A DNA stretch of 56,650 bases, filler included, from Jimgerdemannia flammicorona (lineage: Eukaryota), in assembly GCA_003990765.1 (NCBI GenBank). It is 3 parts of 3 records of this genome, joined end to end, with 100 filler letters (N's around TTAATTAATTAA, not from the genome) between each part and the next. Parts side by side here need not be neighbours in the genome. Positions count along the whole stretch, not along the records: positions 1 to 18,821 come from RBNJ01002104.1; 2 more parts are not named here. One strand, 5' to 3'. Positions 2,838 through 49,524 of the stretch are shown here, one piece after another. Under the pieces are notes generated by a model. The model had not been told where the DNA came from. It saw nothing but the letters and a program-made list of their open reading frames with translations, and ran no database searches. How positions within the stretch are numbered: position 1 is the first letter of the stretch; each line of letters opens with the position of its first letter. Position numbers and translations under genes: made by a program.

Positions 2838-3250
2838 ATCAAGATCAAGATTCAGAAAATTTATCCTGATACAGTCTTATCAGAATATAAGTCAGAAAAT
2901 GCAACTGGAATAGATATTACCACAGTAGAGAAAACTATACTCAAACTGCAGACAACTATCCTACTTGCAACTGGTCTAGAGATAACTATTCCAAAGGACC
3001 ATATTGGGATCCTCAAGACAAGAAGCAGCCTAACTAAGAGCAAAATCACAATTAAAGGAGAAGTCATCAATTTGGATTATATTAGAGAAATACTATTTAT
3101 TTCTAGGAATGACAATCCTATAATTTCATTCTCAATCAAGAAGAAGGACTGACTGGTATAGATATTGATCTTCTCAGTTCTTCAGCCAAGAATCATAGAA
3201 GTCAAGAAGTTGGAAAAAACAGAAAGAGGAAAAAGATTCAGATCTACAGA
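2838..3250 (+). pseudogene. dUTPase domain in pol (between protease and RT)
   Basis: Translation IKIQKIYPDTVLSEYKSENATGIDI...LLATGLEITIPKDHIGILKTRSSL...GEVINLDYIREI...TERGKRFRSTE; degenerate trimeric dUTPase motifs 1-5. Confidence 0.9.
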
Positions 3251-5714: not shown

Positions 5715-8018
5715 ACCAACTACTACCCCTCATAAATGACATCCTTATAACTCTGAGAGATAAAGTATAATACTATAGCACCTTGGATCTATACTCAGAA
5801 TTTTACCAAATCAGACTCACAGAAACAGTAAGTGAGAAATCAGCCTTCATCACTCTAGATAAAATCTATATCTATCTATAAATATCATTTGAAATATGCA
5901 ATACCCCTACAAGCTTCTAGTGAATGATGAACAAAATCTTCTATTATGATATGAGAAGATAGATGATGGTTTATATAGACAATATTATCATCTACAGCAA
6001 AATAGCTGAGAAATATCTGCAGCACATCCAGCAGATGATGGAGAAGCTGAGACAGCATAGTCTTTATATTAAATCTAAGAAGTACAAGTTTGCAGAAATC
6101 GAAATTATCTATCTTGGCCATATTATCAATTGAGATAGAATATACACAGACTCTCTCAAGATACAAATAGTAGCAGTATACCCAAGACCCACTACTATTA
6201 CTGAAGTCCAAGCCTTTATAGGACTTGTCTTATATTACTACTGATTTATTAGAGGATTCTTCAATATTGCAGACCCAATCTATGAACTCAATAAGAAGGA
6301 TACTAAGTTCCAATAGACTGACAGGCAACAGAAAGTATTTAATGAACTTAAGATCAGACTGACTTAGATACCTATTCTCAGAAGATCTGATTGAACTCAA
6401 GAATTCATCCTGTAGACAGATATAAGTACCTAGAGACTAGGAGCAGTCCTAGCTCGAAAGAAAGACAAAGTAGAGTATGTCATTATATATCTAAGCTGAG
6501 AAACCCAAAGAGCTGAAAAAGAATATGAATCCTATAAGTTGGAATGTCTTGCAGTCATCTAGACAGTGGAAAAGTTTCACTACTACTTTGCCAAAAGACA
6601 CTTCACCATTTAGATAGACCACTTAGCCCTTACTTAGCTACTGACTACTGGGTAACCCAAAGGAATCTATGCCAGATTGATTATAAAGTTGCAAGTATAT
6701 GATGTAACCATTGTGTACTACCTAGGAAGAATCAATGCTAATGTAGATACTCTCTCACAGATACTCTGAAAGACTTCCAACCAGTAAATCAATTATAAAT
6801 AAGGAGCTCTACTATGGAATCAATACCTACCTAAGATAGTAAAAGATGCTCCAATATCTGAAAGAATAGATACAAACAATTATCAATAGAACATAGAAAC
6901 AATTTGAAACCAATGGAGAAATATTAAAGAAAGGGAAGCTACTAGTTATACCAGAACATAAGAAGGAGCAAGTAACGAAATCAGTATATAAACTTGACTA
7001 TTTAGGAGGAATGAATATATATGATAAAGCAAAAAGAATAATATAGTGGCCAGGAATAGAGGAAGATATCAGATGATTTGTCAAGATCTGTAATAAATGC
7101 CAGAAATAGAAATAAGATCAATAAAATCAAGCTCCAGGATTAGCATACATAGAACTAGTACTATTTGTCTATATTGTAATAGATGTAATTGGCTTTCTAC
7201 TCTTAACTTTAACTAGTAACCAATACATCATCATCATTATCATAGATCTTTTTATGAAATAGATAGAGGTAGGATCCCTTAAGGAAGCCAATATATAGTC
7301 AATTACTGATTTCTTTTATAAAGAAGTTATCTGCTAATTCAAGACCCCAACACAAGTAACTACAGACAAAGGAACAGAATTTGTGAATTAGTTCTTTGAG
7401 GTTTTCTATAAGAAGTATAAGATTCAGCACATTTAGACTACAGCATATCATCCCTAAGAAAACAGATAGGCAGAAAGGACCAATAAGACCCTCAAGAATG
7501 TTATCATCAAGATCTGCAATAACTATGAAAACTGGGATCACTATCTGTTAATAGTATTATCTACTCTTCAGGATATTCAATCATAAAGTACCCATTTCAT
7601 CTCTCAGGAAATTCTGTTTAGAGAAGAAAGTTCCTAAGAAATCCTATTGTCTAATAGAGATACTGTATGAAAATATATGGATAGAGAGATATGGAGACTA
7701 CATCAAATCAGAAAGAAGACCAAGGATTATATAACCAAGGTACAGATACTATAATAGAATAATGTAGAAAAGATTCACAAGCTCTTGAAGATTATCAAGA
7801 TAGGAGACAAAGTCCTTATATATCAGAATATGGTAGAAGCTTCATGGTCATAAAAACTGGAGCCTAAGTGAGAAGAACCTTATCTTGTGCAAGATATAAA
7901 AGAGATCACCTTTTGGCTATAAAAACTCTCAGACACAATCATCTTTACTACCATTTACTGAAACTAAAGCTAACCAACAGAGTACTGCTACAGCTCTCAA
8001 GATCATCAGTACTATACA

Positions 8019-9163: not shown

Positions 9164-9490
9164 TTTATTACTAATAAGAGATAGTGAAGAGATAAGATTT
9201 ATATTTATAATTTATATTTTATAAAAAAAAAAAAAAAACTTAGATTTTATTAATATATTTAAGAATTTTACTTGAGAAGTTATTTGGATTGAGTCAAGTC
9301 TAATTTATTTTGATAAATATAGAGCAGTTGTTGTATTTAGATAGTTATATTAGAGCTAGTATATAAAATAACAATAGCTTGAGTTTAATTCATTTAGAGC
9401 AATTGACTCATTCTTTATTATTTTAATTTTCTCATTTCCAATATATCCTTAGACATAAGCTCAGTAACTCCAGATATTATCAGCAACAAG

Positions 9491-11784
9491 TGGGGGTACT
9501 GCTCCAGAGGAGAATGGCCTGCCCTGGAATTTTTAAAAGAGGATGGCTGTTGTTGAGGAGGTGTTGGAGGAAATGTCACAGATGTATGATGAGATTATTA
9601 GCTCTGAAGAGTGGATGGGGGGCCAGTGGCTAGGTCTGGTGTCCTTATTGTTCAAGAATAAGAGAATAAAGGAGGATTGGAGGAACTGGCAGCCAATTAT
9701 ACTCCTGGATATGAATTATAAGCTGGTGATGAAGATCCTCATTGCCAGACTACAAGAAGTGGCTTAGCAGGTCTTAGGGAAGGAGCAGCATGAATTTGTG
9801 AAGAGCTGCTTAATCAGAGATAGCATGGCATGGGTCTATAGTATTATTGAGGGAGTAAGGGTAGCAGGAGTGAATGGCCAACTAGTCTTCTTGAATCAGA
9901 AGAAGGCTTATGATAGAGTGAGGAGAGTATGGCTCACTAAGATATTGGGGTACATTGGGATCCCTGGGAACATTTGCCATTCACTCATTAGTCTGCTGGA
10001 AAGAAGTAGTGCAGCTATCCTGACTAATAGCTATAGGGAGGCAGTTTTTCTGCTAAGGAGAGGAGTACTGCAGAGTGACCTGCTCTTACCAATTCTTTAT
10101 ACCTTTACTCTGGAGCCATTGTTGGATAGAATTTAGTACAGGGTAGGGGAACTGAATATATTGGGGGTTAATTGGAAAGTGAGAGCCTTTGCAGATGATA
10201 TAGTGGTTAGGCTGGGCTCTATGGTAGATGTAGCAGTGCTGAAAGAGATGATGGAATAGTATGAGAGGTACTCAGAGATAAAGCTTAACTAGTACAAGTG
10301 TGAGATAATGGTGCTTGGTGAAGGGGTGGTCAGGGGGGATATCATTGGAAAAATAGTTCCTGCAGGAGAGATGGTTCAGTATCTAGATATCTACTTTTCT
10401 GTCTATAGCTCCCTGCTACCCAGAGAGTAGTGGGAATGTAAGATTGTAGAATAGAGTAAGGCACTGATTGATTGGAGTGGTAGATATATGTCACTAGTAA
10501 GGAGGGTGATGGTTCTGAATGTATACTGGTTGCCAAAGCTGTGGTATATAGGATACCACCTGAACTTCCCTAGCTGGGTGGTTAAGAGACTCCTCAAGAT
10601 AGCCTGCTTCTGGGTCTGAGCTGGGTGGTGCAGTCAGATAGGGTGGGAGATACTGATGATACTGCTGGATTATGGCAGACTTGGTCTGGTGGACCTTACA
10701 AAACACCTGGTCTGTTTGAGAGTATAGTAAATGAAGTATGCTGGTGAGCTGAGGGGGGGGGAATGGGTGCCTCTGATGCAATGGCTGTAGAAGATGCAGG
10801 TGTTACTGAGGGGTAGGTCTGGGGACTTGCTTTCCTTGGTAGCTCTGGAGAGTAGCTGGAGAATGTGATATAAAGAATTCTGGTGGGGAGTGGTAGATGG
10901 AGCACATTGCATTGACATCTGTTGGAGGGAAGCTAAAGGTGAGGAGGGTTGGGAGCTGGCAATGCAGAGGTGAGACCATCTCTTGCTGGGAGATAATCTA
11001 GTAGAGGACTTTTAGTTAGAGGATAGTATGGAGTGTCTTAGGGCTTAAGGGCAGGATCTCTGGCCCAGGGCCTGGCAGAAAGCTAGTATTGGAGAAGGAT
11101 GGAACTGGGCTGGTGTGTGGTCATGGAATATAGCAGTGATGAGATGGCTCCTGCCTAAGTATTGGGTGGTGTGGTGGCAGTTTTTATAGTGAAATGTGAT
11201 ATTGAACTTCTGATTGGAGTATCTTATAGCAGGTGGTAAATTTGAGTATAAGGAGTATTATGATATAGAGCAGGAGAGAGGGGTGGTGCAGATCCCAGAA
11301 CATGGTTAGGAGAGTGCAAGAGTATGGAGATGTTCTGGAGGATAATTGGAGGGAGGCTGGGGGTTCCTATACTAGACCCAGTGCATGAGAAGAGGTGGGG
11401 AGCCCTACAGTCTAGATTGGTGGACAGGGTGGGGAATGAGTGACTGATGGTAGAGTGGGCCTTAGCAGTATGGGTCAGGCTTACTAAATATTAGCAGAGT
11501 GTCTTTGAGAAGAGTTCCAGGTTGGCAGCAGAGTTGAGGGAGGCACAGTAGGAGAGACTGGTGCTGGATCTTCTGAATGGTTGGTGGATAGATTGGAGAC
11601 CCAAGGGGGGGAGTCAGAAGGGGAGGAGTCAGAAGGGGCTAGTGAAGAGGATTGTACTAAAGAGTAGTGGGTAAGTTGTGGTATCAGAGATGGGAGTTAC
11701 TCTTGCGAGAGATGGAGGGGGGAAATCTCTCAGAGGGATTGGATAGTGGACTACAATACAGTATTCATAAAGATGTAGAGGGGG
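9491..11784 (+). mobile_element. 5'-truncated L1/Tx1-type LINE (RT plus C-terminal region)
   Basis: DWRNWQPIILLDMNYK, FLNQKKAYDRV, RGVLQSDLLLPILY, AFADDIVV; homologous to 35680-37737; no poly(A) of its own, runs directly into the 1.2-kb element. Confidence 0.92.
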
Positions 11785-12992
11785 CTCCTTTCTCTGCTAC
11801 CTTACTGATCACAAGGTTTGGTAGGTGACCTTCCAAGTCCCCTTTCCCCTATTATTACCCCCTCTACCTCAGGTTGGTTTGCTGTGCCTGCATGGGCATG
11901 GTGGGAGGAGGGCAATGGTGATGAGTTACCCCTTTATTGGTGTTGGATCGGTGTCTTCTCTACTTTTTTGTAGTTTCTGGTATCTTCAGCTGTATCTGGA
12001 GTGCATCTGTTTTGGTGTGGCACCTTCTTCCTTTTGCCATCGCCAATAAGGTGCTGTCTTGGTGTGTCTCAGGCTACATAGGAAGTCGGCTGACCTTGGG
12101 CATCAAGTGCTCAGTATAGGTTACCTGCAGGTCCTCAGTGTCTATAGTAGGGCCCTCTGGCTTTGGCAAGCTTCCTGGTGAGCGTGGTTCTGGCATAGGT
12201 GACTGTTTTTCAGGTGATATTGGGATGGGAGAGAGGGGAGATGGCCATCACAGATAGGAGGAAGGGTGATTATGGTAAACCAGTAGGGTGCCAGGCTGGG
12301 GGCAGTCATCAGGGCTGGGGTAGACAATATTTTGGTAGGGCCTTTCAATTGGCTGGTGGGGAGTGGAGTGGTGCAGGGGCCAGCATCCTGGCTGTACTCA
12401 ACTGGAACCGGGAGCTGATGTGGCAATGCGATTGAGGCCCGCAGGCTTGGGGAGTGGGACCTTTCTCATTTAGCAGTACCCGACTAGAACTGGAAGCTGA
12501 CATGGTAATGTGATTGAGGCCTGCAGGCTTGGGGAGTGGGAGTGGGGTCTCTTTAGGCCCTAGCCCATGTGTAAGTCCTTTGAGGAAGGTGCTGCATGTA
12601 AGTCCTTTATTCACCCACTTTGAATCTACTTTGCTATCTATTGGTTGGTTGGGGGGTTTTTTCTTTGCCTCAGGCTTTCTTTTGGGGTTTGGGGGACTAT
12701 TCTTTATTCAGTCCCAGCACTGCTAGATCTGACACGTAGGTGTGCTCTTGCATGTAAATGATGATCCAGTCCTGGTGAGCAGACAAGTCTAGTCTATATT
12801 GTGGGGGTCAACATAGCCAGTATTTGACAGGTATAGCTGGAGTGGTGGGACTGCTGGATAATTTAGTAACCTAGGTTAATAGGGGGATATTGTTCGGTGG
12901 GTAGTGGGGGAGGATTTTGGCCTATATAGTCTAGGTTCTCTTTCAATAAAAATCTGCAGGACTATGAGTCTATTAAAAAAAAAAAAAAGAAA
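11785..12992 (+). mobile_element. ~1.2-kb non-coding poly(A) retroposon, copy 1 (subtype I)
   Basis: Starts CTCCTTTCTCTGCTACCTTACT and ends AATAAAAATCTGCAGGACTATGAGTCTATT(A)n; homologous to four other copies in the window. Confidence 0.9.
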
Positions 12993-15943
12993 GCTCAAGT
13001 ACTCTAAGAAATCCTGAGCAGTAATGATGTTGACAAGTATCCTGGTATCATTAATATCAACTGAAAGATAATGCTATCTACTACAAGAACAGATTGTATG
13101 TTCCAAACAATCAAGATCTCTGAAGGATTATCCTATTCAAATATCATGATACCCCTACAGCCAAATATCTAGAATTTGATAAATATTATGAAGTTATTTT
13201 CTGAAACTTCTATTAACCTCACATAGCAGACCAGCTAAAGACCTACATTACTTCTTGTAATGCCTGCCAATACAACAAGTCCTCAATACTAGCAAAACCT
13301 GGCCTACTCTACCCTATCCCAGTACCATTTACTAATTGGAGACAAATCTCAATGGACTTCATTATACAACTACTCCAAACCAAGAACAGAAAGATGCAAT
13401 TATTGTCTTCATGGACTACCTTAGCAAATAAGCCCACTTTTTATCAACTACTACTACCATAATAGCACCAGACATTGCTACACTCTTATATGACAACATC
13501 TTCTGCTATCATAGTCTTCCTAAGATTATTATTAGTGATCAAGACCTGGAATTTATCAGCCATTTTTGAAAAGCCCTCCATGCATACCTTGGAATAAAAC
13601 TTGCACTATCTACAGCCTTCCACCTCAAAACTGATGGTCAAACTGAAAGAATGAACTAAACTCTGGAATAAATACTAAGAAACTATGTTTCTTACAGACA
13701 AGATGATTGGCATGAACACCTCACTACAGTTGAGTTTACCTATAACAATAGTAAGCAAGCCTCTCTTGAAATGACCCCATTCTTCACCAATACTAAACAA
13801 AATCCAAATACTCCTCTGATACTTATCCAAACCACTGATGAACTCTCCACTGTTGAAGCTGTTGAAGAATTCCTGCTCTGAATGTGCAATTTAAGCTAGA
13901 TTGCAATCAAGAATTTATCCTGAGCTTAAGAACAATAATCATAATATATCAACTAGCACTGATGAGAAGAAACTTTTGATATTGGAGAAAAGGTCCTACT
14001 AGATATTTGAGGATACTAAGTTGATAACCTCAAGCACAGACTATCTACAAAGTGAAACAGCAAATTTATTAGACCATTTGAAGTCATTGCATAAGTCTTG
14101 CCTACTTTCTACAAATTGGTACTATCAAATACTATTAAGATTTACTCAGTCTTCAATGTCCAGTGTCTCAAATGATACAATGAAAATAATGATGAGCTAT
14201 TCCCAAACTGAACCACAGAACCACCTATATCTGTCATTATTAATGACCAAGAAGAATACAAAGTTGAACAAATTCTCAACAAATGTAGCCACAAGAACCA
14301 TCCAGAGTACCTTGTCAAATGGAAAAGTTATCTGATCTATGATATAATATGGAAACCTAAGACTAATCTCCAGAATGCTACTGACTTAGTTTAGGAATAT
14401 GATTCCTTAAACAACTGAAATCCAAACACTCCTACACCTATCAGTATATATTATATATTACTCTTCAGAACATCATAATCATCATGAACAAAATCAAGAA
14501 CTCAGCAAGTCAAGACAAAATGAATACTGACCCTCTAGAAAAATAGCAAAACTAAAAGCCAGCCTATTCTCCCTGTACCACTGGTGGGAAACAAGATATT
14601 TAAAAAGATTTCTTAGAGAAAATTCTCCAGTAGTAAATAATATCAGAATCACTTCTGGTGCATAGTATTAAACATACAACCCTTTAATATACAAATTCAA
14701 CACATTAGGTAACTGTACTATAAGTATACCACTTTCTGAAAAAATTAGACATTACTGGACTTTTGATCATCCAAATAGTGTAACAATACTAGACCCAAAC
14801 TAGAAGGCCTCTGATAAGGATGTCAAAAGCTAAGAAGGGGAGAGTTATAAGCATACAACTCCTAAGCCACCAAAATCATATGTCATCCTCAGAACTAATT
14901 TGAAAACCACATGTGAAGACTACAAAACAAGTTACTAAAGAAGATTACCCAGTTACACAAAATATACCAGTAAGCATGAGAACCTACTGTCAAGATACAA
15001 GAATACCAGAAGAAGTACTACAACTATAAGACCAATTCTAAATCTCTACAACTAGTTTTGGTATACTGTACTATTATAAAAGAAAACTGAAGTACCAAAC
15101 TCAAACTGAGATGAGAAGAACCCTATCTCATCTATCAGAGATTCATAAACTATACTTATCAACTCAGGGCCAAGATATATTATAACTATATAAGACTCAT
15201 CACTTAGTAGAAGCAAAATACATTTGAATAACCCCATTTACTCTATCTATATTACCTTCATTAGAGAATAACAGATACTTCATCTAAACTCAAGAAAGCT
15301 GACATTGTCAAAACCAATCTCAAGTCTATCCATGTGATAGATATTACTACTAGAAATTATCTCAGATTATAGAAAATATCATTTCTAAGAGGTTTGAATC
15401 CCCAGTATGACATTGAGAGTCCTTGCCCTAGACAAGAATGGCCAGTCCTTGCAAATGTGCCAGCAGTCCAAAAAAAAAAGAGAACTAAGATCTGTTATCC
15501 TTATACAACTGCTACTATCAAGGACAGTCTTAATTTTGCAAGAGATAGAGGTAACAATACCTTAAAACTAATGATATTAAAAGTCAGAAACCGCTCAGAC
15601 TTTACCAGAGATGATATCATTAATAGTAATATCATTAAAGACTACCCAGACAGTATCTAAATCTATAAATAGCCTAACAGTCATTAGTATAGTTAGATTA
15701 GCCTCATGTAATATAACTGTGAACTGACTTAGCAGCCAGATAATCTCTTGACATATCAGATCATACTTGTACTATGTAACTATATTCTGACTCAGTAAGG
15801 TACTAAGTACTATATCTATATTCAGTATAGTCTAGATAGCCCCTCACTAGTATAAATACCCCCTCCCTCAAATCTCAGAATCTCAGACTTAAAGACTTGA
15901 ACAGACTTGAATACAACTTCTGAGCACTTCTTTACAATATCTC
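12993..15943 (+). mobile_element. 3' part of a chromodomain Ty3/Gypsy element (family B): integrase, chromodomain, PPT, 3' LTR
   Basis: YITSCNACQYNK, ISMDFI, IISDQD, AFHLKTDGQTER; chromodomain EEYKVEQILNK...EYLVKWKSY at ~14250-14380; PPT AAGAAGGGGAGAG 14832-14844; LTR from 14846, cut by a LINE at 15944. Confidence 0.92.
14846..15943 (+). repeat. 3' LTR of element B (truncated) with an ORF remnant in U3
   Basis: First ~60 bp match 3690-3750 and 15606-15905 match 4993-5290; the middle is unrelated; TATAAATA at 15851. Confidence 0.85.
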
Positions 15944-18821
15944 TTTTTTTTTTTTTTTTTTTTTTTTATAGTTACTTGGACTCTGCCATTTATTACCAGT
16001 CTATTAATAAGTTTACAGTATCTCCTCTTACTACTCAATCCCTATAGGGGAGCCTCTCTCTGTATCATCATAAATAAAGACTATCTTCTCACCTGCTACT
16101 CCTATCCTCCCTCCACTCTGCCTACAGATCTTCTCCACTAAGTGATGCCTTCAATCACCCTATAACCCCAACCAAGCCACCAGCCTGTCAAGGTATCTTC
16201 CATAAGACTATGCTAGTGCAACAACTGGTCCCCCAAGCCAAGCCTCCTCCCATCTTTAAAAATAAATAGCCAGTGACTGGCCAGCCTCACCCAAATTGCC
16301 AAAACCCAGCCTAAGGTAAGCCACTCCTTTCTCACCCCCCCCCCACCAGTCTATCCCTCAAATCCTCCCACTGACCCCATGTGCCATTTCCCCTATATTA
16401 CTCCCAAACAATCCCCAATAGCCCACTAAAAGTCACTAAGTACCTCACACTCTCCTAGCCAATATTCAGGTATCTGTATATATCCCTCTTCCTGCCCTAC
16501 ATTGTAACACTCCTCACAGTCAAAGTAACCCCCTTTGATAAGGTAACCCAAGTAGAAGTTAAGCATTACATTCCTCCTCAGTATGCACCACCAGACCACC
16601 CAGTACTTTGATAGTATCCACTTCCTCACCTCTGCACTCCAGGCCCATATACTATATCAGTTCCACTCTTCTCTGATACCCACTCTCTGCTATCTGCTAG
16701 ATCACAGATTCTGGCCTTGTCTCCTTTGGTAATCTATCTCATTACTAATGTCAAACTCAATTTAGAAAATGCCTCTCAGCAACACTTGGTCCCATCTCCA
16801 CATCACCAGGTCCCAAGCCACCTCTCCTTCATTATCCTGTCAATAAATTCCAATGCAGTGCACCCCCTCTACTACTCTCTACCAGAAGCCTTTGTATCAC
16901 AATTGTGCAGTATTCTGAAGCCCAACTAATGATAAGAGATCACCTGTCAAGTCTCTTAGTGAGGATCTTATCTCCCAGACTTTCTGCAATAGGGAGACCC
17001 AACTGCCCCCTCTCAATTCTACCACTCTCTTTAACCACTATACTCTCAAGTAGTGTAGTCTCTTCAGAAAGTCAACCAGCCTAAGCCCTCCTCTTGCCAC
17101 CAGTAAGAATAAGACCTTCCAACTTATCTGACTCCTTCTTCCAGCCCAGATCCACCCCTTGGCCAGCTTCATCAATCACTTCACTACCCAGGCTGGGAAG
17201 TCCATATGATAAGCCAGATACCACAACTTTGGCAGCCAATAGATGTTCAAAATCAAGACATGCCCTGCTAGAGATAAGTAGCAACCCCCCCCAGCTCCAC
17301 AGGGCCTCCCCCCAGATTCCAACCCTCTGCTCCCACCAAAGTCTAGATAGTACTGACCCATATACTGACAAATAAATATCCAAGTACTACACTATCTTAC
17401 CAGTAGGGATAATTGTTCCAATAACATCCCCTCCCACCAGACCATTACCCAACACCATTGTTTCACACTTATGCTAATTGAGTTTAGCCCCAGAGTTCTC
17501 CTCATACCACTCCACCATCTCCTTGAGCTCCTTAATATCTGCAATAGACCCTAGGCCAACCATTATGTTATCTGCAAAGGCCCCAACTTTTCACCCAATT
17601 CCAAAAACAGAGAGCCCTACTATCTTCTGCCTAATTCTATCTATTAGGGACTCCAGGGAAAGAATATATAGAATGGGAGATAGTGGGTTCCCCTGGGGCA
17701 CACCCTTATCTAGGAGAAATGATACCCCTCTATGTTCATTATATATGAGTGCAGCCCTACTCTCTTCCAGTAGACTGATTATTGCTGATCTGAACTGATG
17801 GGGTACTCCAGTCCTATCCAATACTTTTACCAGCCAGACTTACTGCATCTGGTCATAAGCCTTCTTCTGGTCTAAGAAGACCAGTTTCCCATCCAGTCCA
17901 CAAGCTCATACCCCTTCAATAACTCTATATACCTAGGCTGTGCTATCTCTAATGAGCTGGCCTCCTACAAAGCCTCTCTGCTCAATATCCAAGACTTGCT
18001 GGGCCACCTTCTGTAGCCTCATGACCACCACCTTAGTTACCAACTTTCTGTTCATGTCTAGTAGCATAATTAGCTGCCAGTTCTTCTAGTCCTCTCTCCT
18101 TCCTTTGTTCTTGTAAAGCAATATCACTAGCTCCAGATCCTGCACCCCCACCCATCTCTCTGTCTGTAATATAAAGTTATACAATATTATCATCTTACTC
18201 AGTACTCCTGGAACTCCCACCATCTTCTTCCAGAAGTCCCAGAGCAGACCATCCTCTCCAGGTACCATGCCCAGGGTTGTCACAGTAAGAACCTGGTGGA
18301 TCTCTTCCTCTTGTACTGACAACACTAAGTCACCCAGCCCATCTACTCATGGAGAGTGCCAATCTTCCAATGCCCAGTCAATGGCAGCAGCATCTGCCCC
18401 ACCCTCCTCCTCACTCCACAATCCACTCCATCACTCTTTTAATGAACCAAGAATGTCTTGTATACTATATACTAGTATACCATCAGAGTCAAGCACCCCT
18501 TCCCACCTTTACTGTACCCTTCTCACCTGAAGGACCCTTATGAGATACTTAGAGGGCCTCTCCCCTTCCTCCAAACCCTGTCAATGAAGCCATGCTGCCA
18601 AGCTCTATACCTTTGCCTCCTCCTCATCCTACAGTACCTGTTGTAATTCTCCAACCTCCATTTTCACCCTCATTAATCTCCAATCCTCTCTCCCCTCTAC
18701 CATCACTAGCTCTACCCAATTCTCCAAGAGTCTAGTCAGTCTAACAGAAGCCCATCTCACCTATCACCTTCTCTGCTTCCCAGCCTCCCTACTAGCCTCA
18801 CTTCAGTAGCTCCCTTTTTTT
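15944..18821 (-). mobile_element. L1/Tx1-type LINE, 3' half with poly(A) tail, running to the contig end
   Basis: Poly(T) 15944-15967; minus-strand VPGEDGLLWDFWKK, KGVPQGNPLSPILY, FDCEECYNVG...PEYWLGEC. Confidence 0.93.
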
Positions 18822-18921
18822 NNNNNNNNNNNNNNNNNNNNNNNNNNNNNNNNNNNNNNNNNNNNTTAATTAATTAANNNNNNNNNNNNNNNNNNNNNNN
18901 NNNNNNNNNNNNNNNNNNNNN
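18822..18921. other. Artificial contig-joining spacer
   Basis: 44 N + TTAATTAATTAA (stops in all six frames) + 44 N. Confidence 0.98.
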
Positions 18922-20195
18922 TTTTTTATAATAGAATTAAGTCTTTACAAATTTTAATTAAAGGGAATCTAGACTATATAGGTCAAACCCCTCTCCCACC
19001 CCCCTCTCTCTAAGTACTATTCTTTTATTAATCTAGGCTACTAAATTATTCAGCAGTCCTACTATTCTAGCTATGTATGATAAATATATATACTATCTCT
19101 CACTATATAGATCAGACTTATTTACTCACTGAGACTAGATAATCATACTAATAATGCAAGAGTATACCTATATATCAAATCTAGCTACACTGAGACTGAG
19201 TAATAAATAGTCTTCTGAATTGGAAATAAAATTCTAAAAAAGGAGAAAACCCCCCAATCAATTAACAAAAAGCAGAGAGAATTCAAAATAGGTGAATAAA
19301 GAACTAAAATACAAAACTCTCTCCAAAGGACTAATATATAGGCTAAGGCCTGAAAAGACTCCAATTCTACTCTCTGAGTCTATAGGCCATAATTTTATTA
19401 CTATATCAGCTTCTAGTTCCAGTCAGGTACTATTTAATAAAAAAGATCTCAATCTCTAAGCCTATAGGTCTCAATCATATTACGATATCAGCTTCTAGTT
19501 CCAGTCAGGTACTATTTAATAAAAAAGATCTCAATCTCTAAGCCTATAGGTCTCAATCATATTACTATATCAGCTCTTAGTTCTAGTTAGATATAGCTAA
19601 GATACTAGTCTCTATACTACTCTACCTTCAGTCAGCCAATTAGAAGACTTTATCAAGATAGTATCTATAATTCTCTAATAGCTATCACTAGTCTAGTATC
19701 TGACTAGTCTACTATAATCACTCTTCCACCAATCTGTAATAGCCATTGTCTCTCTTATCTCAATACTACCTCAAAAACAGTCACCTATATCAGAACTATA
19801 CTTATCAGGAAGCTTGCCAAAGCTCAGAAGGTCCTACCACAAATACTGACAATCTCTAGATAACTATACCAATACTTAAAACTCAAGATTAGCTGACTCT
19901 CTATATAGCCTAAGAGATACTGAGATAATATATAGTTGATGATAGTAAAATAAAGAAGGCATTACACTATAATAAATATATCCTAGATATAGTCAGAAGT
20001 ATCAAAAACTATAAAAAAGTGAGAAAGTACTAATTTAATATTATTAAAGAAATAACTCACTACCATTGTCTTCCTTCCTCTACCCTTTAATAGATACAGC
20101 AAACTATACTAGGGTAGAGGGGATAAGGTTAGAGAAAAAGATATTCAGACAATTATCTGCTGATATCTTGTAACTAGTATAGTAGTAGAGAAAGA
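18922..20195 (-). mobile_element. ~1.2-kb non-coding retroposon, copy 2 (subtype I, three internal repeat units)
   Basis: Reverse complement colinear with 11785-12992; ~82-bp unit present three times at ~19370-19595. Confidence 0.88.
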
Positions 20196-20358
20196 AACAG
20201 TTGAGATATTTCTTAGCTATCTTACTATAGATGATCATATTATCTATATAGACCATCATTCATTTTTCTATATCTTCTCAGAAGATCTTATTTATCATTC
20301 TCTAGAGTATTGGACATTCTGAATAATATTCTTAGATAGATATAGATTCTGTCTGGAG

Positions 20359-20981: not shown

Positions 20982-22250
20982 GTCTAGGGTAATGAAGGCT
21001 GACTTTTCACTGGCTTCCTTGGTAAGGCTGATTTGATTAAATACTAAGTATAAATCTAAGATAGTATAGTATTATACTTTATCTCCTAGTGTTACCAGGA
21101 TGTTACTGATGAGGAGCAGTGGTTGATAATTCTTTTTAGTAACTTTGTTGAGTTTTCTATAGTCTGTACAGAGTCTTGGGGCAAATTCTTCTAGCTTGTT
21201 TCCTTTCTTTGGGACTAGTATAATTGGTATAAATCTAAAAACTAATAACTTTTTTGATAATACCAGCTTCTTTTATCTAATTTATTTTTTTTCTGAGCCA
21301 TTCATAATATGCTGGTGGAATTAGTCTTGCCCTTTGGTAGATTGGCTCAGTATCTCCTATATCTATAACATAATAGTAGTGTGGTGTCTTTTATTTAATA
21401 TTCTTAAAATCAGTAGTAAGGATATCTCCAAATTTATATAGTAGCTTCTTGAGTTTCTTTTTAAATAGAAATTCATTTCTAAAAGTATAGCTATATATGC
21501 TTATCTGTAATTTCCTTCTTTTTGTAGTCTAATTTAGTAATATTAGTACTGTTAAAAACTCGTTTTTCTATAGATCCAAATCCTCTCCTTTCTCTTCTAT
21601 TTTCTAGCTTCTTGATATTCCAAATCTTAGATTGCAGTATCTGAAAGATCAGTATTTATATGAGTTAGTCTTTCTTTTGTGACTATAAATAGGATTGAAA
21701 AGTTATAGTTTCTACCATTAAGCAAGATTTCTCTAATATAATCAGAATTAATAACTCCTCTTTCAATCAAAATTTCACTCTTTGCTAGACTGCTGCTTGT
21801 CTCAAATATTCCATTATAATTCTTGAAAATAGTTATTACTAGACTAGTTATAAGTAGGATTATTGTCTGATGTTTAAGAACTGTCTTCTCAATTGTTATA
21901 ATATCTATTTCAGCCACATTTTCTGACTTATATTCTGGCAGAACTGCATTAGAGTAAATCCTCTAAATATTGATCTTGATTTCTTCTTCATCATCACTAT
22001 TCTCTAGAAAAGCTGATGGTTCATCTAGTTAGTCTTCTATTTCTTACCAATTCTGTCTTCTTTTCTTCTTTTTATAATGAATCTTATGGATCTTAGCAAT
22101 ATATTGATAGCACTTATCTATATGCGTCATATGGTATATTTGAATTTTATGAGGACATACTTCTTATGGGACATATTCTTCATCAATCTTCTTTCATCAG
22201 TCTTCTTTCCTGATCTATCTGACCCTGAGTAGTTACCATATAGGCTTCTT

Positions 22251-34255: not shown

Positions 34256-34286
34256 AGGATGGGATTACTTTCTAACATTATTCCTT

Positions 34287-37737: not shown

Positions 37738-37837
37738 NNNNNNNNNNNNNNNNNNNNNNNNNNNNNNNNNNNNNNNNNNNNTTAATTAATTAANNNNNNN
37801 NNNNNNNNNNNNNNNNNNNNNNNNNNNNNNNNNNNNN
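37738..37837. other. Artificial contig-joining spacer
   Basis: 44 N + TTAATTAATTAA + 44 N, identical to 18822-18921. Confidence 0.98.
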
Positions 37838-41800: not shown

Positions 41801-42580
41801 AGTAATAGTGAATTTTAGACTTAGATCTATATTATATAGGACTAGAGTATAGATTAGGTAGTTCTTGAGTTCTTGGAAGACTTATTGATAAAAGAGATCT
41901 CAGATATAGGGTATATAGTGATTAGAGTGAGATGCCTACCTTATGAGATTAGTCAGTGACTTAGCAATACTAAAGAAGTTTCTGATAAAGTAACAATAAT
42001 AGTCAGCTAGATTAAAAAAGAACTGAAGTTCTGTAAGATTCAATAGAATAGAATATTCTTAAATTATCTCTATCTTATATAAGTCTATTTAAATTTCTTA
42101 TATAGAGATAATGTGGCTAAGATATTCAACTTATTTTTTGAAAAATTCATATTTTTTAAGCTTTGTATAAAGCTTATATTTTTACAAGATCTTCAGAACT
42201 ACTCAGATATACTTGAGATATTCTTCTTTAGTTATATTAAAGATCAGAATATTATCAAGATATATTAATAAGAAGATAAATAGTCAGTTCTTGAATATTT
42301 TATTCATAAGAGTCTAGAATATAATAGATATATTAGTAAGATTAAATGTTAGGACTAGAAATTTATAGAGTCTAAAGGGGGTTATAAATATAGTCTTGGA
42401 GATATCTTCTAGCTTGATTTGAATTTGGTGGTATCCTGATATAAGGTTTAACTTAGTAAAGTACTTGATATTCTTAAGAGTATTAAAAATTTGATCAATC
42501 AAAGGTAGTAGATATTGATTCTTGACTATAAGTTTATTGAGTATAGTAGTCTATATATATTTATAGAACAGCTTTGTGTA

Positions 42581-43778
42581 CTCCTTTCTCTACTATCTTA
42601 TCAGTCACAATAGTTTAATAGGTAATCTTCTAAGTTTACTTCCACAACTAATACTCTCTCTACCTTGGATTGGTTTTCTGTACCTATTGTAGGACAGTGG
42701 AAAAGAGGCAATAGTGATGAGTTGCCTCTTTATCAGTATCAGATTAGTGTCTTTTTCACTTTTTCACAGTTTCTAGTGCCTTTGGCTGCATCTGGGGTAT
42801 ACTCATTTTAGTATAGTACCTTCTTCCTTTTGCTGTCACCAACAAGATATTGTCTTAGTATATTATAAGTTATATAGGGAGTTGGCTGATCTTGGGTATC
42901 AAGTGCCTAATATAGGTTATCTATAGATTCTTGATATCTGTGATGGGGTCCTCTGACTTTGGCAAGCTTTTTGATGAGCATAGTTCTGACATAAGTGACT
43001 GTTTCTTGAGTGATATCAAGATAAAAGAGAAGATGGCTATTACAGATAGATGGAAGAGCAATAACAGTAAACCAGTAGGATACCAGGCTGGGAGTAGTTA
43101 TTGGGCTGGGGTGGGTACTGCTTTGGTGGGGACTTTTGATTAGTATAGGGTAGTTAGATAGTAGGTATCACTCTCAGCTTCTTTTGACAATTCATAGAGT
43201 TGGGTCTCAGTCATTAAGAGGGGCTGGAGGGCCCAAGACTACCTATATCAGATATCTTGGCTGCACTTAACTAGAACTGAGAGCTGACATGGTAATATAA
43301 TTGAGGCTTACAGACTTGAGTAGTAGGATATTAGGGATCTCCTCTCATCTCATGTGTAAGTTCTCTACTTATCTTACTTGAGAGAACCAGGTCCTATCTA
43401 TCATTTTGTACTTTGAGGAGGGTTTTTTCTTTATATATCATTTCTACTTGAGGTAGCAGAGGCTATTCTATTCAGCTTAGACATAGTTTTGTATATATAT
43501 TGGAGTTTCAGATATATGCTTTTAGTTATTAGTATATGGCTGAGTTCTCTCTGATAGTAGGGAGAGTATAGTGTACAGAATGAGGTACAGGCCACTATAG
43601 GCCCTACTATATCTGATATGGTCAAGCTACTGGATGATAGCTAGCTTAGGTTTAATGGGAGAACAGTACTCAGTGAGTAGTAAGAGAGAGTTTTGGCCTA
43701 TATAGTCTAGGTTCCCTTCCAATAAAAATCTGCAAGACTCTGAGTTTATAAAATAAAAATAAAAAATAAAAAATAAAA
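42581..43778 (+). mobile_element. ~1.2-kb non-coding retroposon, copy 3 (subtype II)
   Basis: Same 5' and 3' ends; A-rich tail; degenerate TSD ATA(T/C)ATTTATAGA; interrupts the RT of element E. Confidence 0.88.
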
Positions 43779-44120
43779 TACATTTATAGAGTACTATTCT
43801 TCTTTTTGATAAATAGGAATAGTGAGCTATAAGAGGATTTTCTTAATTGAATAGCTCCTTATATAAGTAGTTTTTCTAGTTCTTTCTTAATTACTTCAAT
43901 TTTAAGAGATAATATATAATATATATTTTTTGGATAGTATAGCTCCTAGAGTCAGTTCAATTTCATAATCAACTTCTTATATACATAGATAATAGACCAG
44001 ATAGCTTATCTAAGAAGATATCCTTAAATTCTTCAAGTAATAACTCGATACTTTTATTAATTAATAGCTTCTTGTCTTACTTCTTAGAGCAGACTATTGC
44101 AATAAAGGTATGCACTATAC

Positions 44121-45312
44121 CTCTTTCTCTGCTACCTTACTGGTCACAATGATTTGGTAGACAACCTTCCGAGTCTACTTTCTACAATTATTACCTCCTC
44201 TATCTTGAGTTGGTTTGCTGTACCTATTGCAGGGCAGTGGGAGAGAGGCAATGGTGATGAGTTGCCCCTTTATTAGTGTCAGATCAGTGTCTTCTCTACT
44301 TTTTCATAGTTTCTGATACCTTTGGCTGTATCTGAAGTATATCTATTTTGGTGTGGCACCTTCTTCCTTTTGCTATTGCCAATAAGGTACTGTCTTGGTG
44401 TGTCTTAGACTATATAGGGAGTTAGCTGACCTTGGGTATCAAGTGCTCAGTATAGGTTACCTATAGATCCTTAGTACCTATAGTGGGGCCCTCTGGCTTT
44501 AGTGAGCTTTCTGGCAAGTACAGTTCTGGTGTAGGTAACTGCTTTTCAGATATTGTCAGGATGGGAGGGGAGATGATCATCACAGATAGGAGGAAGGGTG
44601 ATTATGGTGAACTAGTAGAGTACTAGGCTGAGAGCAGTCATTGGGGCTGGGGCAGGTACTGCTTTGGTGGAGCCTTTTGATTGGTATGGAGCAGTTAGGT
44701 AATATGTATCACTCTTAGCTTCTTTTGGTGATTCAGCAGGTTAGGCCCTGGTCATTGGGGGGGGGGTTGGGGGGTCCAAGGCTATCCATTTCAGATATCT
44801 TGGCTGTATTCAACTAGAACTGAGAGCTGATACAGCAATATGATTGAGGCCCACAGGCTTGAGTAATGGGGTATTGGGGGTCTTCTCCCACCTCATATAT
44901 AAGTCTTTTACTCATCTCAACTGAGAGAACCAGACCCTACCCACTGTGATGTACTTTTATGAGAGTTTTTCTTTACCTGTCATTCTCTTTGAGGTAGCAG
45001 GGGCTACATATTCTATTCAGCTTGGGTATAGCCTTATATATATGTTGGGGTCTCAGGTATGCACTTTTGGTCATTGGCATATGGCTGGGTTCTCCCTGGT
45101 AGTAGGGAGAGCATAGTGTACAGAATGAGGTGTAGGCTAACATAGGCCCTGCTGCATCTGATATAGTTGAGCTGCTGGACAATAGCTAGTCTAGATTAAT
45201 GAGGGGGCAGTGCTTGATGGGTAGTGGGGGAGGGTTTTGGCCTATATAGTCTAGATTTTCTTTTAATAAAAAATCTGCAGGACATTGAGTCTATTAAAAA
45301 AAAAATAAAAAA
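44121..45312 (+). mobile_element. ~1.2-kb non-coding retroposon, copy 4 (subtype II)
   Basis: Exact 18-bp TSD AATAAAGGTATGCACTAT (44101-44118, 45313-45330); poly(A) tail. Confidence 0.93.
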
Positions 45313-45799
45313 AATAAAGGTATGCACTATCTTCTTGAGTACTTTCTTATATTATATTGCTAATAGTATTACTATCTGAGTTTTATTTACAGGCTTATCT
45401 GTCTTGATAGTGATATTAACTCCTTCTTGAAGTAGAGTAACTTTATTTTATTATCAATTAATATTCAGATTGTACTTTATAAGTCAGAGTTTTCCTAAGA
45501 TCAAATTATAATATCTTAGTGATATGATCTCAAAGTTTACTTATTCTCAATATTTCTAAATATTAATGGATAGTTTGGCTGCAATTAACTCAATAGAATA
45601 TAGTGTACCATCTATAATAACTATGCCATCATTCTTGGATACAGACTTGGTGAGAATCTTGAGGTTTTCAATGAGATTCTAGTTGATAAAGTTCTCTATA
45701 GCTCTGCTATCTATAAGTACTTGAACTTCTTTTTTCTTAACTAGATCTTTGAAAATAAGCATTTCTTAAGCTTAATTTTCAGTAAGACTTACTACTTGA

Positions 45800-46013
45800 T
45801 CAGTACTACCAAAATCTTTCTAATCTTACTTGGTTTCAGATAGTTCTTAGACTTCTATAATTTTAGATTGACTGACTTTTTCTAGGATCATTTGTGTGAC
45901 TTAATTTCTTTTCTTAACTGTATAGTCTTAATTCTTCTAATTAATAAGTAAGACTTGAACTTGTTCTTGATAGTCTGAATTAATAATATTAGTGCTAATA
46001 TCTAAATAATATT

Positions 46014-46086
<73 letters not shown>

Positions 46087-47470
46087 GACTCAAAGTTCTA
46101 TGGATTTTTATTAAAAGAGAACCTAGACTATATAGACCAAAACCCTCTCCCACTACCCATCAAGCACTGCTCCCCCATTAATCTAAGCTAGCTATTATCT
46201 AGTAGCTTGACTATACCAGATACAGTAGGGCTTATAGTGACCCATACTTCATTCTGCACACCATGCTCTTCCTACTACCAGAGAGAACTCAGCTATATGC
46301 TGGTAACTGAAAGTATATGCCTGAGACCCCAACATATGTACAAGGCTACACTCAAGCTAAATAGAATAGCCTCTACCACTCCAAAGAGAATAATAGGTAA
46401 AGAAAAACCCTCATTAAAGTATATCACAGTAGATAGAGCTTGGTTCTTCCAGTCAAGATGAGTAAAGGACTTATATGTGAGATGGGAGGAGAACTCCAAT
46501 ACCCCACTACTCAAGCCTGTAGGCCTCAATCACATTGCTGTATCAGCTCTCAGTTCTAGTTAAGTATAGCCAAGATGCCTGAAATGGGTAGCCTCAGGCC
46601 CTCTGATCCCCCCCAATGACCAGGGCTCAACTCACTGAATTGTCAAAAAAACTAAGAGTGATACCTACTACCTAACTGCTCAGTACCAATCAGAAGGCCC
46701 CATCAAAGCAGTACCTGCCCTAGTCTCAATAACTACTCCTAGTCTGGCACTCTACTAGTTCACCACAATCATTCTTTTTCCTATCTGTAATGGCCATCTC
46801 CCCTCTCATTCTGACAACACTCAAAAAACAGTCACTTATGTCAGAACTGTACTTACCAGGAAGCTCACTAAAGCCAGAAGGTTCTACCATAGGCACTGAG
46901 GACCTATAGGTAATCTATACTGGGCACTTAATGTCTAAGGTCAGCCAACTCTCTATATAACCCATAATGTACTGAGACAGTATCTTGTTGGTGATAGCAA
47001 AAGGAAGAAAGTATCACACCAAAATAGATGCACTCCAGATACAGCTGAAGGTACTAGAAACTACAAAAAAGTGGAAAAAACACTGATTGGATACCAATAA
47101 AGGGGCAACTCATCACCATTGCCTCTCTCTCACTGTTCTATAATAGGTATAGTAAACCAATCCAAGGTAGAGGGGGTAATAATTATAGAAAGTAGACTTG
47201 GAAGGTTGCCTACCAAACTATTGTAACCAGTAAGGTAGCAGAGAAAGAGATATATATATTAAATAATATTTGACACTAAGTTCTGATTATGGTACAATTC
47301 TAGCATAATATCTTTCAGAATATTAGACTATAATTTCAGTAAGTACCAGAGTTCAGCCTTTGGCTGAAATAGTAAGTAACTTGTTTGACAGAGTATAGGT
47401 TAAGACAAATGGCTTCTTTTATTGATATTGAGAGATCTGGGCCTTTGGATGAAGTTTCTTGATCTTAAGT
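45800..47470 (-). pseudogene. dUTPase of element E (between gag and protease), split by retroposon copy 5
   Basis: LKIKKLHPKAQI...EAICLNLYS...YARIVP*SELSVKYYL | DISTNIINSDYQEQVQVLLIN...VTQMIL...DFGSTD. Confidence 0.88.
46017..47259 (-). mobile_element. ~1.2-kb non-coding retroposon, copy 5 (subtype II)
   Basis: 66-nt poly(T); exact 14-bp TSD TAAATAATATTTGA (46003-46016, 47260-47273). Confidence 0.93.

Positions 47471-49457: not shown

Positions 49458-49524
<67 letters not shown>

Follow-up and report, generated by a model that had tools for sequence, protein, structure and literature searches.

What is the poly(A)-tailed 1.2-kb sequence that begins at position 11785 of this stretch of Jimgerdemannia flammicorona DNA, and by what route did it come to be repeated there? 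The window, that is, the whole stretch analysed, comprises 56,650 nt in three N-separated contigs. The sequence is a repeated, non-coding 1.2-kb mobile element, unusual yet of an already known kind, and it probably belongs to a family of non-LTR retroposons, about 1.2 kb long, that encode no protein, are non-autonomous and of the RNA polymerase II (Pol II) type, and depend on LINEs. The preliminary description of the locus had placed five copies over the three contigs, and a blastn search with the first of them (c1) as the query recovers all five at these places, with at least one copy on every contig and with unrelated flanks:

11785..12992, plus strand: c1, subfamily A, the least decayed copy; body 11785-12974, poly(A) 12975-12988, then GAAA
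18922..20203, minus strand: c2, subfamily A, the most decayed copy; tail cut by the contig end at 18922, shared start at 20195
42571..43777, plus strand: c3, subfamily B; shared start at 42583, A-rich tail interrupted
44119..45312, plus strand: c4, subfamily B; shared start at 44120, exact 18-bp target-site duplication (TSD) on both sides
46017..47259, minus strand: c5, subfamily B; poly(A) of 66 nt (46017-46082), exact 14-bp TSD on both sides

The family is read from these five copies, all of which are heavily decayed; the pairwise identity among c3, c4, and c5 is 76 to 82% over about 1200 bp. The sole gene in the window, a flanking SET/TPR gene, has its nearest named relatives in the Endogonales, at only 37 to 39% identity.

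The copies have a common start, CTC/CCTCTTTCTCTGCTACC. The 5' motif TTTCTCTRCTAYY has nine matches in the window at up to one mismatch, where 1.4 are expected, and five of the nine are the copy starts themselves, each with 0 mismatches. At the other end, the copies show the common order AATAAA, about 25 nt, GAGTCTATT, and poly(A), and the 3' motif CCTATATAGTCTAG is found in all five, in line with the earlier observation that the copies end in AATAAA and poly(A). The AATAAA lies 30 to 31 nt upstream of the tail, and the poly(A) lengths are 14 to 66 nt. The 5' end had been called invariant, which is true of the shared start in all five copies but not of what precedes it, as four of the five carry 1 to 12 extra bases upstream. 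These are a single A between the TSD and the shared start in c4, the ten nucleotides ATATATATAT in c5 (47250-47259), eight nucleotides in c2 (20196-20203), after which host-repeat homology resumes, and twelve nucleotides in c3 (42571-42582), if the candidate TSD of that copy is real. The extra 5' bases vary between copies, suggesting several source loci.

The exact TSDs of 14 and 18 bp previously reported at two copies are confirmed. Both the c4 duplication AATAAAGGTATGCACTAT (44101-44118 / 45313-45330) and the c5 duplication (46003-46016 / 47260-47273) occur in the window at their two flanking places only, and the c4 flank match is equalled by 0.3% of random windows. The candidate 16-nt TSD of c3 (42555-42570 / 43778-43793), with 13 identities and 3 transitions, has a score equalled by 17% of random windows and is not significant alone. 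A search at both flanks found no TSD for c1 alone, and a statistically solid TSD is present in two of the four copies that have both flanks.

The extent of the unit is also visible in public sequencing runs. In all four runs, which are of DNA or unknown type and had small shares (0.05-0.15), cover is zero over 11400-11741, rises sharply near 11784, and stops near 12995. The preliminary description had considered that longer copies might reveal the sequence as only the 3' UTR of an autonomous LINE, whereas the TSDs bracket the 1.2-kb unit and the cover starts at the shared 5' end. One run (X1) contributes 1064 contig pieces, and across the runs there are hundreds to about a thousand distinct pieces, whose upstream loose ends at 11781 and 11784 differ among themselves. 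The family is apparently very abundant, judging from these run contigs, which are summaries and may derive from relatives. Pattern scans of a metagenome contig collection with a conserved 3' stretch and a conserved 5' stretch gave 0 matches, and none of the literature matches listed describes a comparable element in Mucoromycota or Endogone.

The five copies fall into two subfamilies, A (c1 and c2) and B (c3, c4, and c5), whose middles differ. Three parts are common to both, namely a 5' module (about 590 bp), an 82-bp unit in one to three copies, and a 3' module (about 140 bp):

11785..12375 (c1 coordinates), plus strand: 5' module of about 590 nt, with the polypyrimidine start CTCCTTTCTCT and a T5-6 run near position 180
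12385..12548 (c1 coordinates), plus strand: 82-bp tandem unit, with 1 transversion between the subfamilies; its surroundings are not conserved
12850..12974 (c1 coordinates), plus strand: 3' module of about 125 to 140 nt, ending in GAGTCTATT and carrying AATAAA at -30/-31 relative to the tail

The 82-bp unit is present about twice in c1, 2.6 times in c2 (19371-19587), and once each in c3, c4, and c5. Between the subfamilies, the two modules and the 82-bp unit differ by 0 to 5 transversions per 100 columns, compared with 18 to 27 per 100 columns, plus gaps, outside the conserved modules. Module exchange, instead of selection, could explain why the 5' and 3' modules are better conserved.

The decay of the copies is dominated by transitions, with 303 transitions versus 38 transversions among the two-state columns of the shared modules. 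The CpG-rich ancestor proposed earlier is upheld in part: 31 dinucleotide sites trace to CpG, 26 of them with both TG and CA and 5 keeping CG, but C>T changes are seen outside CpG as well. An apparent CpG island in the 5' module was rejected, as the excess disappears when the same three copies are used over the full length, giving an observed/expected CpG ratio of 0.33 to 0.43 along the whole element.

The element is non-coding. After reversal of the C>T/G>A changes, the restored consensus has no stop-free frames beyond chance, the longest (171 and 166 aa) being equalled by 12% and 23% of shuffles, which agrees with the absence of a shared ORF in the preliminary description. The possibility raised there that the consensus encodes a protein finds no counterpart in the searches, with 0 Pfam matches at E<0.01 for 21 frames of at least 55 aa and no homologue found with a 107-aa frame. 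Likewise, the earlier statement that there is no recognisable tRNA, 5S, or 7SL head is supported by ARAGORN, which reports 0 tRNA genes, and by Rfam, which had been proposed as a check and yields no family: nothing reaches the gathering score in the whole window, and nothing in the element has E<0.04. A Vax2os1_3 match (E 0.043, 23.9 bits versus a gathering score of 50) was rejected as chance, as were two miRNA matches and a RAGATH-8 match at E>0.7 in a permissive Rfam search of c1 and c3 to c5. There are 11 B-box-like sites in the window and 0 inside the copies.

All five copies have the T5-6 run near position 180, which would stop RNA polymerase III (Pol III). Together with the AATAAA signal and the missing Pol III head, this run fits the earlier proposal of a probably Pol II-transcribed, non-autonomous element, and the 5' module may be an internal promoter region.

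The likely source of the mobilising enzymes is a LINE family with the following traces in the window:

9481..11784, plus strand: 5'-truncated LINE fragment, fused head-to-tail to c1
15944..18821, minus strand: presumed partner-family LINE copy, with its own AATAAA and a poly(A) tail at 15944-15967
20474 (plus strand) and 22271 (minus strand): further LINE ends of the partner-family type
34242-34829 and 35525-36555, plus strand: partner-family endonuclease (EN) and reverse transcriptase (RT) ORFs, with the domains Exo_endo_phos and RVT_1

The nearest solved structure to the LINE RT is the human L1 ORF2p (E 1.4e-7), and three LINE 3' ends in the window carry AATAAA at -25 to -27 and poly(A). The earlier assignment to L1-type target-primed reverse transcription fits these data, given the poly(A) tails, the TSDs of 14 and 18 bp, and the APE- and RT-encoding LINEs with similar tails nearby. 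Because the element and LINE 3' ends have no significant similarity other than AATAAA and a terminal (C)TAT(T), the helper LINE is assigned by co-residence and by one junction.

At this junction, the start of c1 is joined directly to a LINE 3' end that carries its own AATAAA-like signal, and the LINE does not continue into the element. Compared with its family, the LINE fragment is missing the poly(A) and roughly the last 8 to 20 nt. The LINE and c1 together lie between the two copies of a candidate TSD of 33 to 34 nt (9457-9489 / 12991-13024), which is decayed: 24 positions are identical, 6 differ by transitions and 3 by transversions, and there are 2 gaps. At this pre-specified place it has p ~0.037, being equalled by about 3.7% of random windows, and the same flank has better-scoring chance matches elsewhere in the window. 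A nested insertion with a small deletion could explain the junction equally well.

We infer the following cycle. A source copy would be transcribed by Pol II from a promoter within the 5' module of about 590 nt, with initiation either on the shared CTCTTTCTCT start itself or a few bases before it. The presumably capped RNA would be cleaved and polyadenylated about 25 nt past its own AATAAA, and the EN/RT of a co-resident LINE, APE-type and poly(A)-tailed, would then bind this poly(A) RNA in trans. Target-primed reverse transcription by this enzyme at a nicked, A/T-rich site would insert the copy, leaving the tail and a TSD of variable length. Most copies would be full length because the RNA is short, and once inserted they decay through C>T/G>A transitions affecting both strands.

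It is rather improbable, though the most probable of the other explanations, that the element is an internally deleted derivative, consisting of the 5' UTR and 3' UTR, of an autonomous LINE family not represented in the window, which would have retained the promoter and the 3' recognition end of its parent. The modular layout, with conserved 5' and 3' modules and a variable or replaced middle, agrees with such an origin, and so do the LINE-like strand composition and the AATAAA/poly(A) end. However, no ORF remnant was detected, the 5' motif TTTCTCTRCTAYY was not found in the LINE regions of the window, and a blastn search of the element against the window LINEs at word size 7 returned poly(A) matches only. 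A search in a purine/pyrimidine alphabet, which ignores transitions, gave at most 83 bits for the true queries, below the reversed controls, which reached 93 bits. Pieces of the element also had no match in all other sequence of the 56-kb window.

The retrocopied cellular ncRNA that the preliminary description offered as an alternative is considerably less plausible. Under this explanation, the copies would stem from one highly expressed ncRNA gene and would not form a self-propagating family, similar to WEIRD of Magnaporthe, an ncRNA of about 1.1 kb that is found solely as the 5' part of LINE chimeras and has been argued to be no transposon (PMC2104539). A non-coding, polyadenylated sequence of about 1.2 kb with a defined 5' end would be expected of such a gene, and the capture of the 1.1-kb ncRNA by LINE reverse transcription sets a fungal precedent (PMC2104539). 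The explanation is nevertheless unlikely because there are two diverged subfamilies, with different middles and unequal counts of the 82-bp unit, and because the public runs hold so many distinct contig pieces. The differing extra 5' bases, with the several source loci that they suggest, also argue against a single gene, and solo copies have their own tail and TSD, unlike WEIRD. The WEIRD/MINE chimeras, in which LINE reverse transcription fused the ncRNA to a LINE, are flanked by direct repeats, and the c1-LINE junction may be of this kind, although WEIRD forms the 5' part of its chimera whereas the element here forms the 3' part, with the LINE on the 5' side.

The many stems and structured nature attributed to the element earlier do not withstand comparison with dinucleotide shuffles. 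Folding z-scores range from +1.65 (the 5' 596 nt of c1) to -0.32, with values of +0.82, +0.40, and +0.28 for the 5' end and -0.32 and -0.23 for the 3' end of the transition-restored consensus, indicating a stability no greater than that of shuffled sequence. The three stems named in the preliminary description do pair in 74 of 85 cells, compared with 23 to 44 when slid, but this pairing is unusable as evidence, since the sequences counted are the ones from which the stems had been read and symmetric decay confounds the result. The compensatory-looking changes are all C:G to T:A, exactly what arises when both arms decay symmetrically by C>T/G>A. A consensus fold of the 82-bp unit (8 units, -5.7 kcal/mol) was likewise rejected, its compensatory pairs being only C:G to U:A. 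If the element were a structured RNA retroposon, with its exact 5' end cut by a self-cleaving HDV-like ribozyme as in some LINEs, this would account for the same shared start in five copies and for the pairing of the three stems, but such a reading is highly unlikely in view of the unremarkable folding, the decay of both stem arms, the lack of any credible ribozyme or other Rfam family in the element at E up to 1 to 5, and the extra upstream bases in four of the five copies, which 5' cleavage would remove.

To our knowledge, few LINE-dependent retroposons of the Pol II type that are long, non-coding, and without a small-RNA head have been described (Sadhu in Arabidopsis, Eg-R1 in powdery mildew, and SVA/LAVA in apes). 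Sadhu, Eg-R1, and SVA are close analogues, and the family described here is a new one. Eg-R1 has a length of about 700 bp, which is shorter than the element here. With classical SINEs, the family shares non-autonomy, LINE dependence, tails, and flanking TSDs, but it has no Pol III head, contains internal Pol III terminators, and at 1.2 kb is several-fold longer; a 3' tail shared with a LINE, another trait of classical SINEs, is not detectable in comparison with the LINEs of this window. The earlier characterisation as unusually long thus applies relative to classical SINEs, but Sadhu, SVA, and WEIRD are comparable in length.

The Sadhu elements of Arabidopsis are about 900 bp long and non-coding, with a poly(A) tract and TSDs of 7 to 16 bp, and 39 sequences are reported (PMC2848041). 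Sadhu and the family here are alike in being non-coding elements of about 0.9 to 1.2 kb with poly(A), variable TSDs, and several diverged subfamilies, in having neither A/B boxes nor a resemblance to tRNA, 5S, or other small RNAs, and in starting with a conserved motif and a stretch of pyrimidines. For Sadhu, as here, mobilisation by LINEs and a promoter within the element have been proposed. The two are unrelated in sequence: the Sadhu 5' motif CAATCGTTSC, allowing up to 2 mismatches, has 36 matches versus 39 expected in the window and 0 at the copy starts. Unlike the plant-hosted Sadhu, the family here is fungal, has an internal tandem unit, and is far more numerous than 39 sequences, judged from the run contigs.

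Eg-R1 of Blumeria graminis has more than 3000 copies, and its insertions are reported to lack genomic poly(A) stretches (PMC6022598), whereas the copies here have tails of 14 to 66 nt. Both are fungal, SINE-like without A/B boxes, essentially non-coding, and high-copy, with abundant LINEs around them. Pol II transcription is suggested for each, since both have an AAUAAA signal and T runs in their interior at which Pol III would terminate. Eg-R1, which is likened here by its description, differs in having a small peptide ORF and an ascomycete host without such C>T decay.

The SVA elements are 0.7 to 4 kb long with TSDs of 4 to 20 bp, and 63% are full length, compared with about 5% of the human helper LINE (PMC3287187). 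The SVA/LAVA elements of hominoids resemble the family here in being non-autonomous, non-coding, and of the Pol II type, with a CT-rich 5' start, a variable internal tandem region, AATAAA and poly(A), and TSDs, in being mostly full length while copies of the helper LINE are mostly truncated, and in the occurrence of extra or transduced 5' bases. SVA is built from recognisable older repeats (Alu-like and SINE-R), whereas the element here matches nothing else in the window; its tandem unit is 82 bp in one to three copies, and it begins with a CT-rich run of 11 nt in place of the hexamer array of SVA.

A tentative further suggestion, which we regard as unlikely, concerns the 5' module, which has stayed nearly transversion-free between two old subfamilies with replaced middles: it might be a dedicated functional unit that combines an internal Pol II promoter with an RNA element recruiting LINE proteins efficiently in trans, making the family an independent fungal counterpart of SVA. 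If true, such a counterpart would have arisen in an early-diverging, Mucoromycota-like lineage and become one of its commonest repeats, and the LINE-c1 junction would be a template-switch product tying the element directly to its helper.

The family opens no long-standing question. Annotation pipelines would label it "unknown", and it is worth adding to the repeat library of this genome. A further unrelated, apparently abundant family in which a CT-rich start and conserved 5' module are combined with a variable tandem unit and a polyadenylation signal of its own would support the repeated origin of this layout wherever poly(A)-recognising LINEs are active.

A blastn search of the window with the sequence 11785-12992 recovers four further copies of the element, a noncoding poly(A) repeat of about 1.2 kb. 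The five copies form two subfamilies, A (c1 and c2) and B (c3, c4, and c5), and the B copies are 76 to 82% identical to one another over about 1,200 bp.

Copies of the element
11785-12992 (+): c1, subfamily A
18922-20203 (-): c2, subfamily A
42571-43777 (+): c3, subfamily B
44119-45312 (+): c4, subfamily B
46017-47259 (-): c5, subfamily B

The five-way alignment yields a common start, C(T/C)(C/T)TTTCTCTGCTACC, and a common end, where AATAAA is followed by about 25 nt, GAGTCTATT, and then poly(A). With transitions allowed, the start motif has nine matches at no more than one mismatch (1.4 expected); the five copy starts are among these nine and match it without any mismatch. The tail measures 14 nt in c1 and 66 nt in c5, consists of interrupted runs in c3 and c4, and is cut off by the contig end in c2. 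An exact 18-bp repeat found nowhere else in the window flanks c4 (44101-44118 and 45313-45330), and an exact 14-bp repeat flanks c5, its sequence being confined to those two places in the window. These results bear out the core of the preliminary description, a multicopy repeat with shared ends, poly(A), and target-site duplications (TSDs).

The two TSD copies of c4 are still identical despite five G/C positions each, and c4 itself differs from its sisters by about 18 to 24%; either much of this divergence is older than the insertion, or the short duplicated flanks were spared by the decay. Three independent insertions, two with their own exact TSD, lie within 4.7 kb (42571-47259) in a tract of 27 to 37% GC, a clustering that suggests either a marked bias toward A/T-rich targets or a hot spot at this locus. 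A T run (18813-18821) closes contig 1 and another (18922-18927), the poly(A) of c2 read on the opposite strand, opens contig 2; the contigs may be neighbours in the genome, with the break falling at a homopolymer. Other poly(A)/poly(T) tracts, with no AATAAA in the preceding 70 nt, lie at 1-26, 9223-9238, 26976-26988, 48581-48596, and 49459-49524 (the last an A run next to a T run), and some of them may be tails of other retroposons.

The number of extra bases before the shared start varies by copy, with 1 nt in c4, 10 nt in c5, 8 nt in c2, where another host-repeat copy (5840-6018) shows the point at which host homology ends, and 12 nt in c3, given its candidate TSD. Such bases would be expected if different source loci initiate slightly upstream of the shared start, or if untemplated nucleotides are added at the 5' junction; the available text of PMC3287187 documents the two processes for SVA and L1. 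After ribozyme trimming they would not be expected.

Contigs of four public sequencing runs, which hold small shares of the element's words, were matched to 11400-13100 at 85% likeness. All four have zero cover at 11400-11741, an onset at about 11784, and an end at about 12995. Run X1 alone places 1064 contig pieces there. Depth in these runs does not give a copy number, since relatives or the source sample may be among them. Immediately upstream, at 11781 and 11784, the loose ends are not alike between records, and some records change to subfamily-B sequence at 12320. The run data support a discrete unit that has inserted independently many times, and the family is real and well delimited.

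To describe its layout, we compared c1 and c4 by transversions alone, a class that the decay does not produce.

Transversions per 100 alignment columns, c1 against c4
Columns 20-619, 5' module: 0 to 5
Columns 620-719, middle: 27, many gaps
Columns 720-819, spanning the 82-bp unit: 1 (over 60 aligned columns)
Columns 820-919, junction that follows the 82-bp unit: 7 (over 58 aligned columns, gaps)
Columns 920-1219, middle: 18 to 21, many gaps
Columns 1220-1335, 3' module: 1 to 2 (two bins)

Subfamily B copies have a single 82-bp unit, c1 has about two, and c2 has 2.6. From this profile and the varying unit number, the family is modular: two conserved modules, about 590 nt at the 5' end and about 140 nt at the 3' end, enclose a variable region that carries a small tandem array.

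No frame in c1 exceeds 120 aa. Since every copy is heavily altered by C>T and G>A changes (303 transitions and 38 transversions at two-state columns of the shared modules), C and G were restored at such columns before the frame search, giving sequences of 1266 and 1171 nt with 56 to 59% GC. The longest stop-free frames in them, both on the C-rich minus strand, are 171 and 166 aa, lengths that 12% and 23% of shuffles attain. The 21 real frames of at least 55 aa from the five copies have no Pfam match at E<0.01, and no homologue was found for a 107-aa frame. ARAGORN detects no tRNA gene in the window, and Rfam gives nothing at gathering score, with permissive E values returning chance-level matches only. 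The earlier statement that the copies have no shared open reading frame and no recognisable tRNA, 5S, or 7SL head is upheld. A T5-6 run at about nt 180 of all five copies, which persists after restoration, and AATAAA at -30/-31 relative to the tail argue for Pol II and against Pol III, an argument also made for Eg-R1 of Blumeria graminis in the accessible part of PMC6022598.

Among the alternative identities, the UTR of a LINE was considered against the LINEs of the window, whose domains are Exo_endo_phos and RVT_1. After masking of the copies, a word-size-7 blastn search of the window gives poly(A) matches only, and a transition-blind search in a purine/pyrimidine alphabet scores true queries at 83 bits or less and reversed controls at up to 93 bits. 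The 3' end of the window LINE family reads AATAAA..AGTCCAAG.(A/G)ACTAT-poly(A) at three places.

LINE-family 3' ends
15967 (-)
20474 (+)
22271 (-)

The element has in common with these ends only the signal, the spacing, and the (C)TAT(T) terminus. The element fails the defining tests of a LINE UTR, and no piece of the window LINEs was found in it. A processed pseudogene and a classical SINE are likewise rejected, the element failing the defining test of the former and those of the latter. The LINE nuclease is ExoIII-like, and among solved structures the reverse transcriptase is closest to human L1 ORF2p (E 1.4e-7 vs 2.4e-4 for R2). Given this kinship and the limited likeness of the 3' ends, a helper that recognises poly(A), without need of any particular 3' sequence, is plausible.

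For c1, no TSD of its own was found, and its first base directly follows a 5'-truncated LINE fragment (about 9481-11784), which, by alignment with another copy, extends to an AATAAA-like signal and is without its last bases and tail. In one reading, the reverse transcriptase would have copied the element RNA and then switched to LINE RNA; template jumps of this kind produce Magnaporthe and mammalian chimeras, according to the available text of PMC2104539. In the other reading, c1 would have inserted in the LINE tail with a small deletion. A decayed candidate repeat of 33 to 34 nt around the LINE and c1 (9457-9489 and 12991-13024) is only a lead, as about 3.7% of random windows score equally.

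The copies have 26 dinucleotide sites with both TG and CA and 5 sites still reading CG, so these sites were once CpG. Restoration from the three B copies gives 55% GC and an observed/expected (o/e) CpG ratio of 0.33 to 0.43, even along the element, vs 0.00 to 0.14 in the present copies. The ancestor was thus GC-rich, with CpG far above that of the present copies, in agreement with the CpG-rich ancestor proposed initially. C>T changes are also seen where the next base is A, C, or T. G and C columns are hit alike (183/237 and 120/160), so the decay acted on both strands of DNA and was not RNA or cDNA editing.

The window is eukaryotic and crowded with retroelements, and its three contigs are separated by spacers of N/TTAATTAATTAA (N runs at 18822-18921 and 37738-37837). 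An LTR element with protease and dUTPase domains is present in two copies about 70% identical to each other.

Other features of the window
2058-3149 (+): LTR-retrotransposon pol, dUTPase domain directly after the aspartic protease (Pfam E 3.4e-10)
21630-21962 (-): the same (Pfam E 4.7e-8)
56433-56648 (+): start of a TPR and SET-domain protein (P0001, 513 aa), running off the end

One LINE segment occurs inverted at the end of contig 2 (36925-37737) and the start of contig 3 (38033-38849) with 89% identity, which could be an inverted insertion pair or an assembly effect. CpG is nearly absent (o/e 0.04 to 0.17 per contig; 0.00 to 0.29 in 4-kb bins of 1-56000), TpA is elevated across all repeats of 1-56000, and GC is as low as 25%. 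The exception is the last 650 bp (56001-56650; CpG o/e 1.09, GC 50%), where the SET/TPR gene starts. The closest named relatives of its product in a homologue search are from Endogone sp. FLAS-F59071 and Jimgerdemannia flammicorona, with identities of no more than 37 to 39%, and a protein-atlas look-up likewise indicates Mucoromycota. The host is accordingly read as a fungus of this broad type, though not closely related to any named genome. The decay consists of transitions on both strands, some of them outside CpG. The pattern looks like repeat-targeted cytosine methylation with deamination, or else a process resembling RIP, in such a Mucoromycota-like fungus.

The many stems of the preliminary description show no folding stability beyond shuffles. 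Of 100 dinucleotide shuffles, 95 fold more stably than the first 596 nt of c1 (z +1.65), and the restored consensus gives z values of +0.82 over 590 nt, +0.40 over 150 nt, and +0.28 over 300 nt, with -0.32 and -0.23 for its last 200 nt. The three proposed stems, derived from these same sequences, are paired in 74 of 85 cells vs 23 to 44 with slid partners. All two-sided changes are C:G to T:A, exactly what results when each arm decays on its own by C>T and G>A, and they are therefore rejected as covariation among these five neutrally decaying copies. The folding energy shows no sign of structure, leaving a structured, ribozyme-like reading unsupported.

The best explanation is a non-autonomous, noncoding retroposon of Pol II type that is mobilised by the poly(A) LINEs residing alongside it. 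This retains the retroposon reading originally given, apart from the word "structured". Arabidopsis Sadhu elements, as portrayed in the available text of PMC2848041, are noncoding, about 900 bp long, and poly(A)-tailed, with 7- to 16-bp TSDs and a 5' motif plus polypyrimidine stretch, and they lack A/B boxes; our element works alike, yet by sequence it is not a Sadhu member, and none of the copy starts has the Sadhu motif. The hominoid SVA, for which the accessible part of PMC3287187 reports a CT-rich start, a VNTR, AATAAA, TSDs of 4 to 20 bp, and a full-length share of 63% vs about 5% for L1, ascribed to the shorter RNA, also works alike, yet the element is no SVA by sequence. Eg-R1, judged by its published description, again works alike. 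The element represents a new family, and its kind is known but uncommon.
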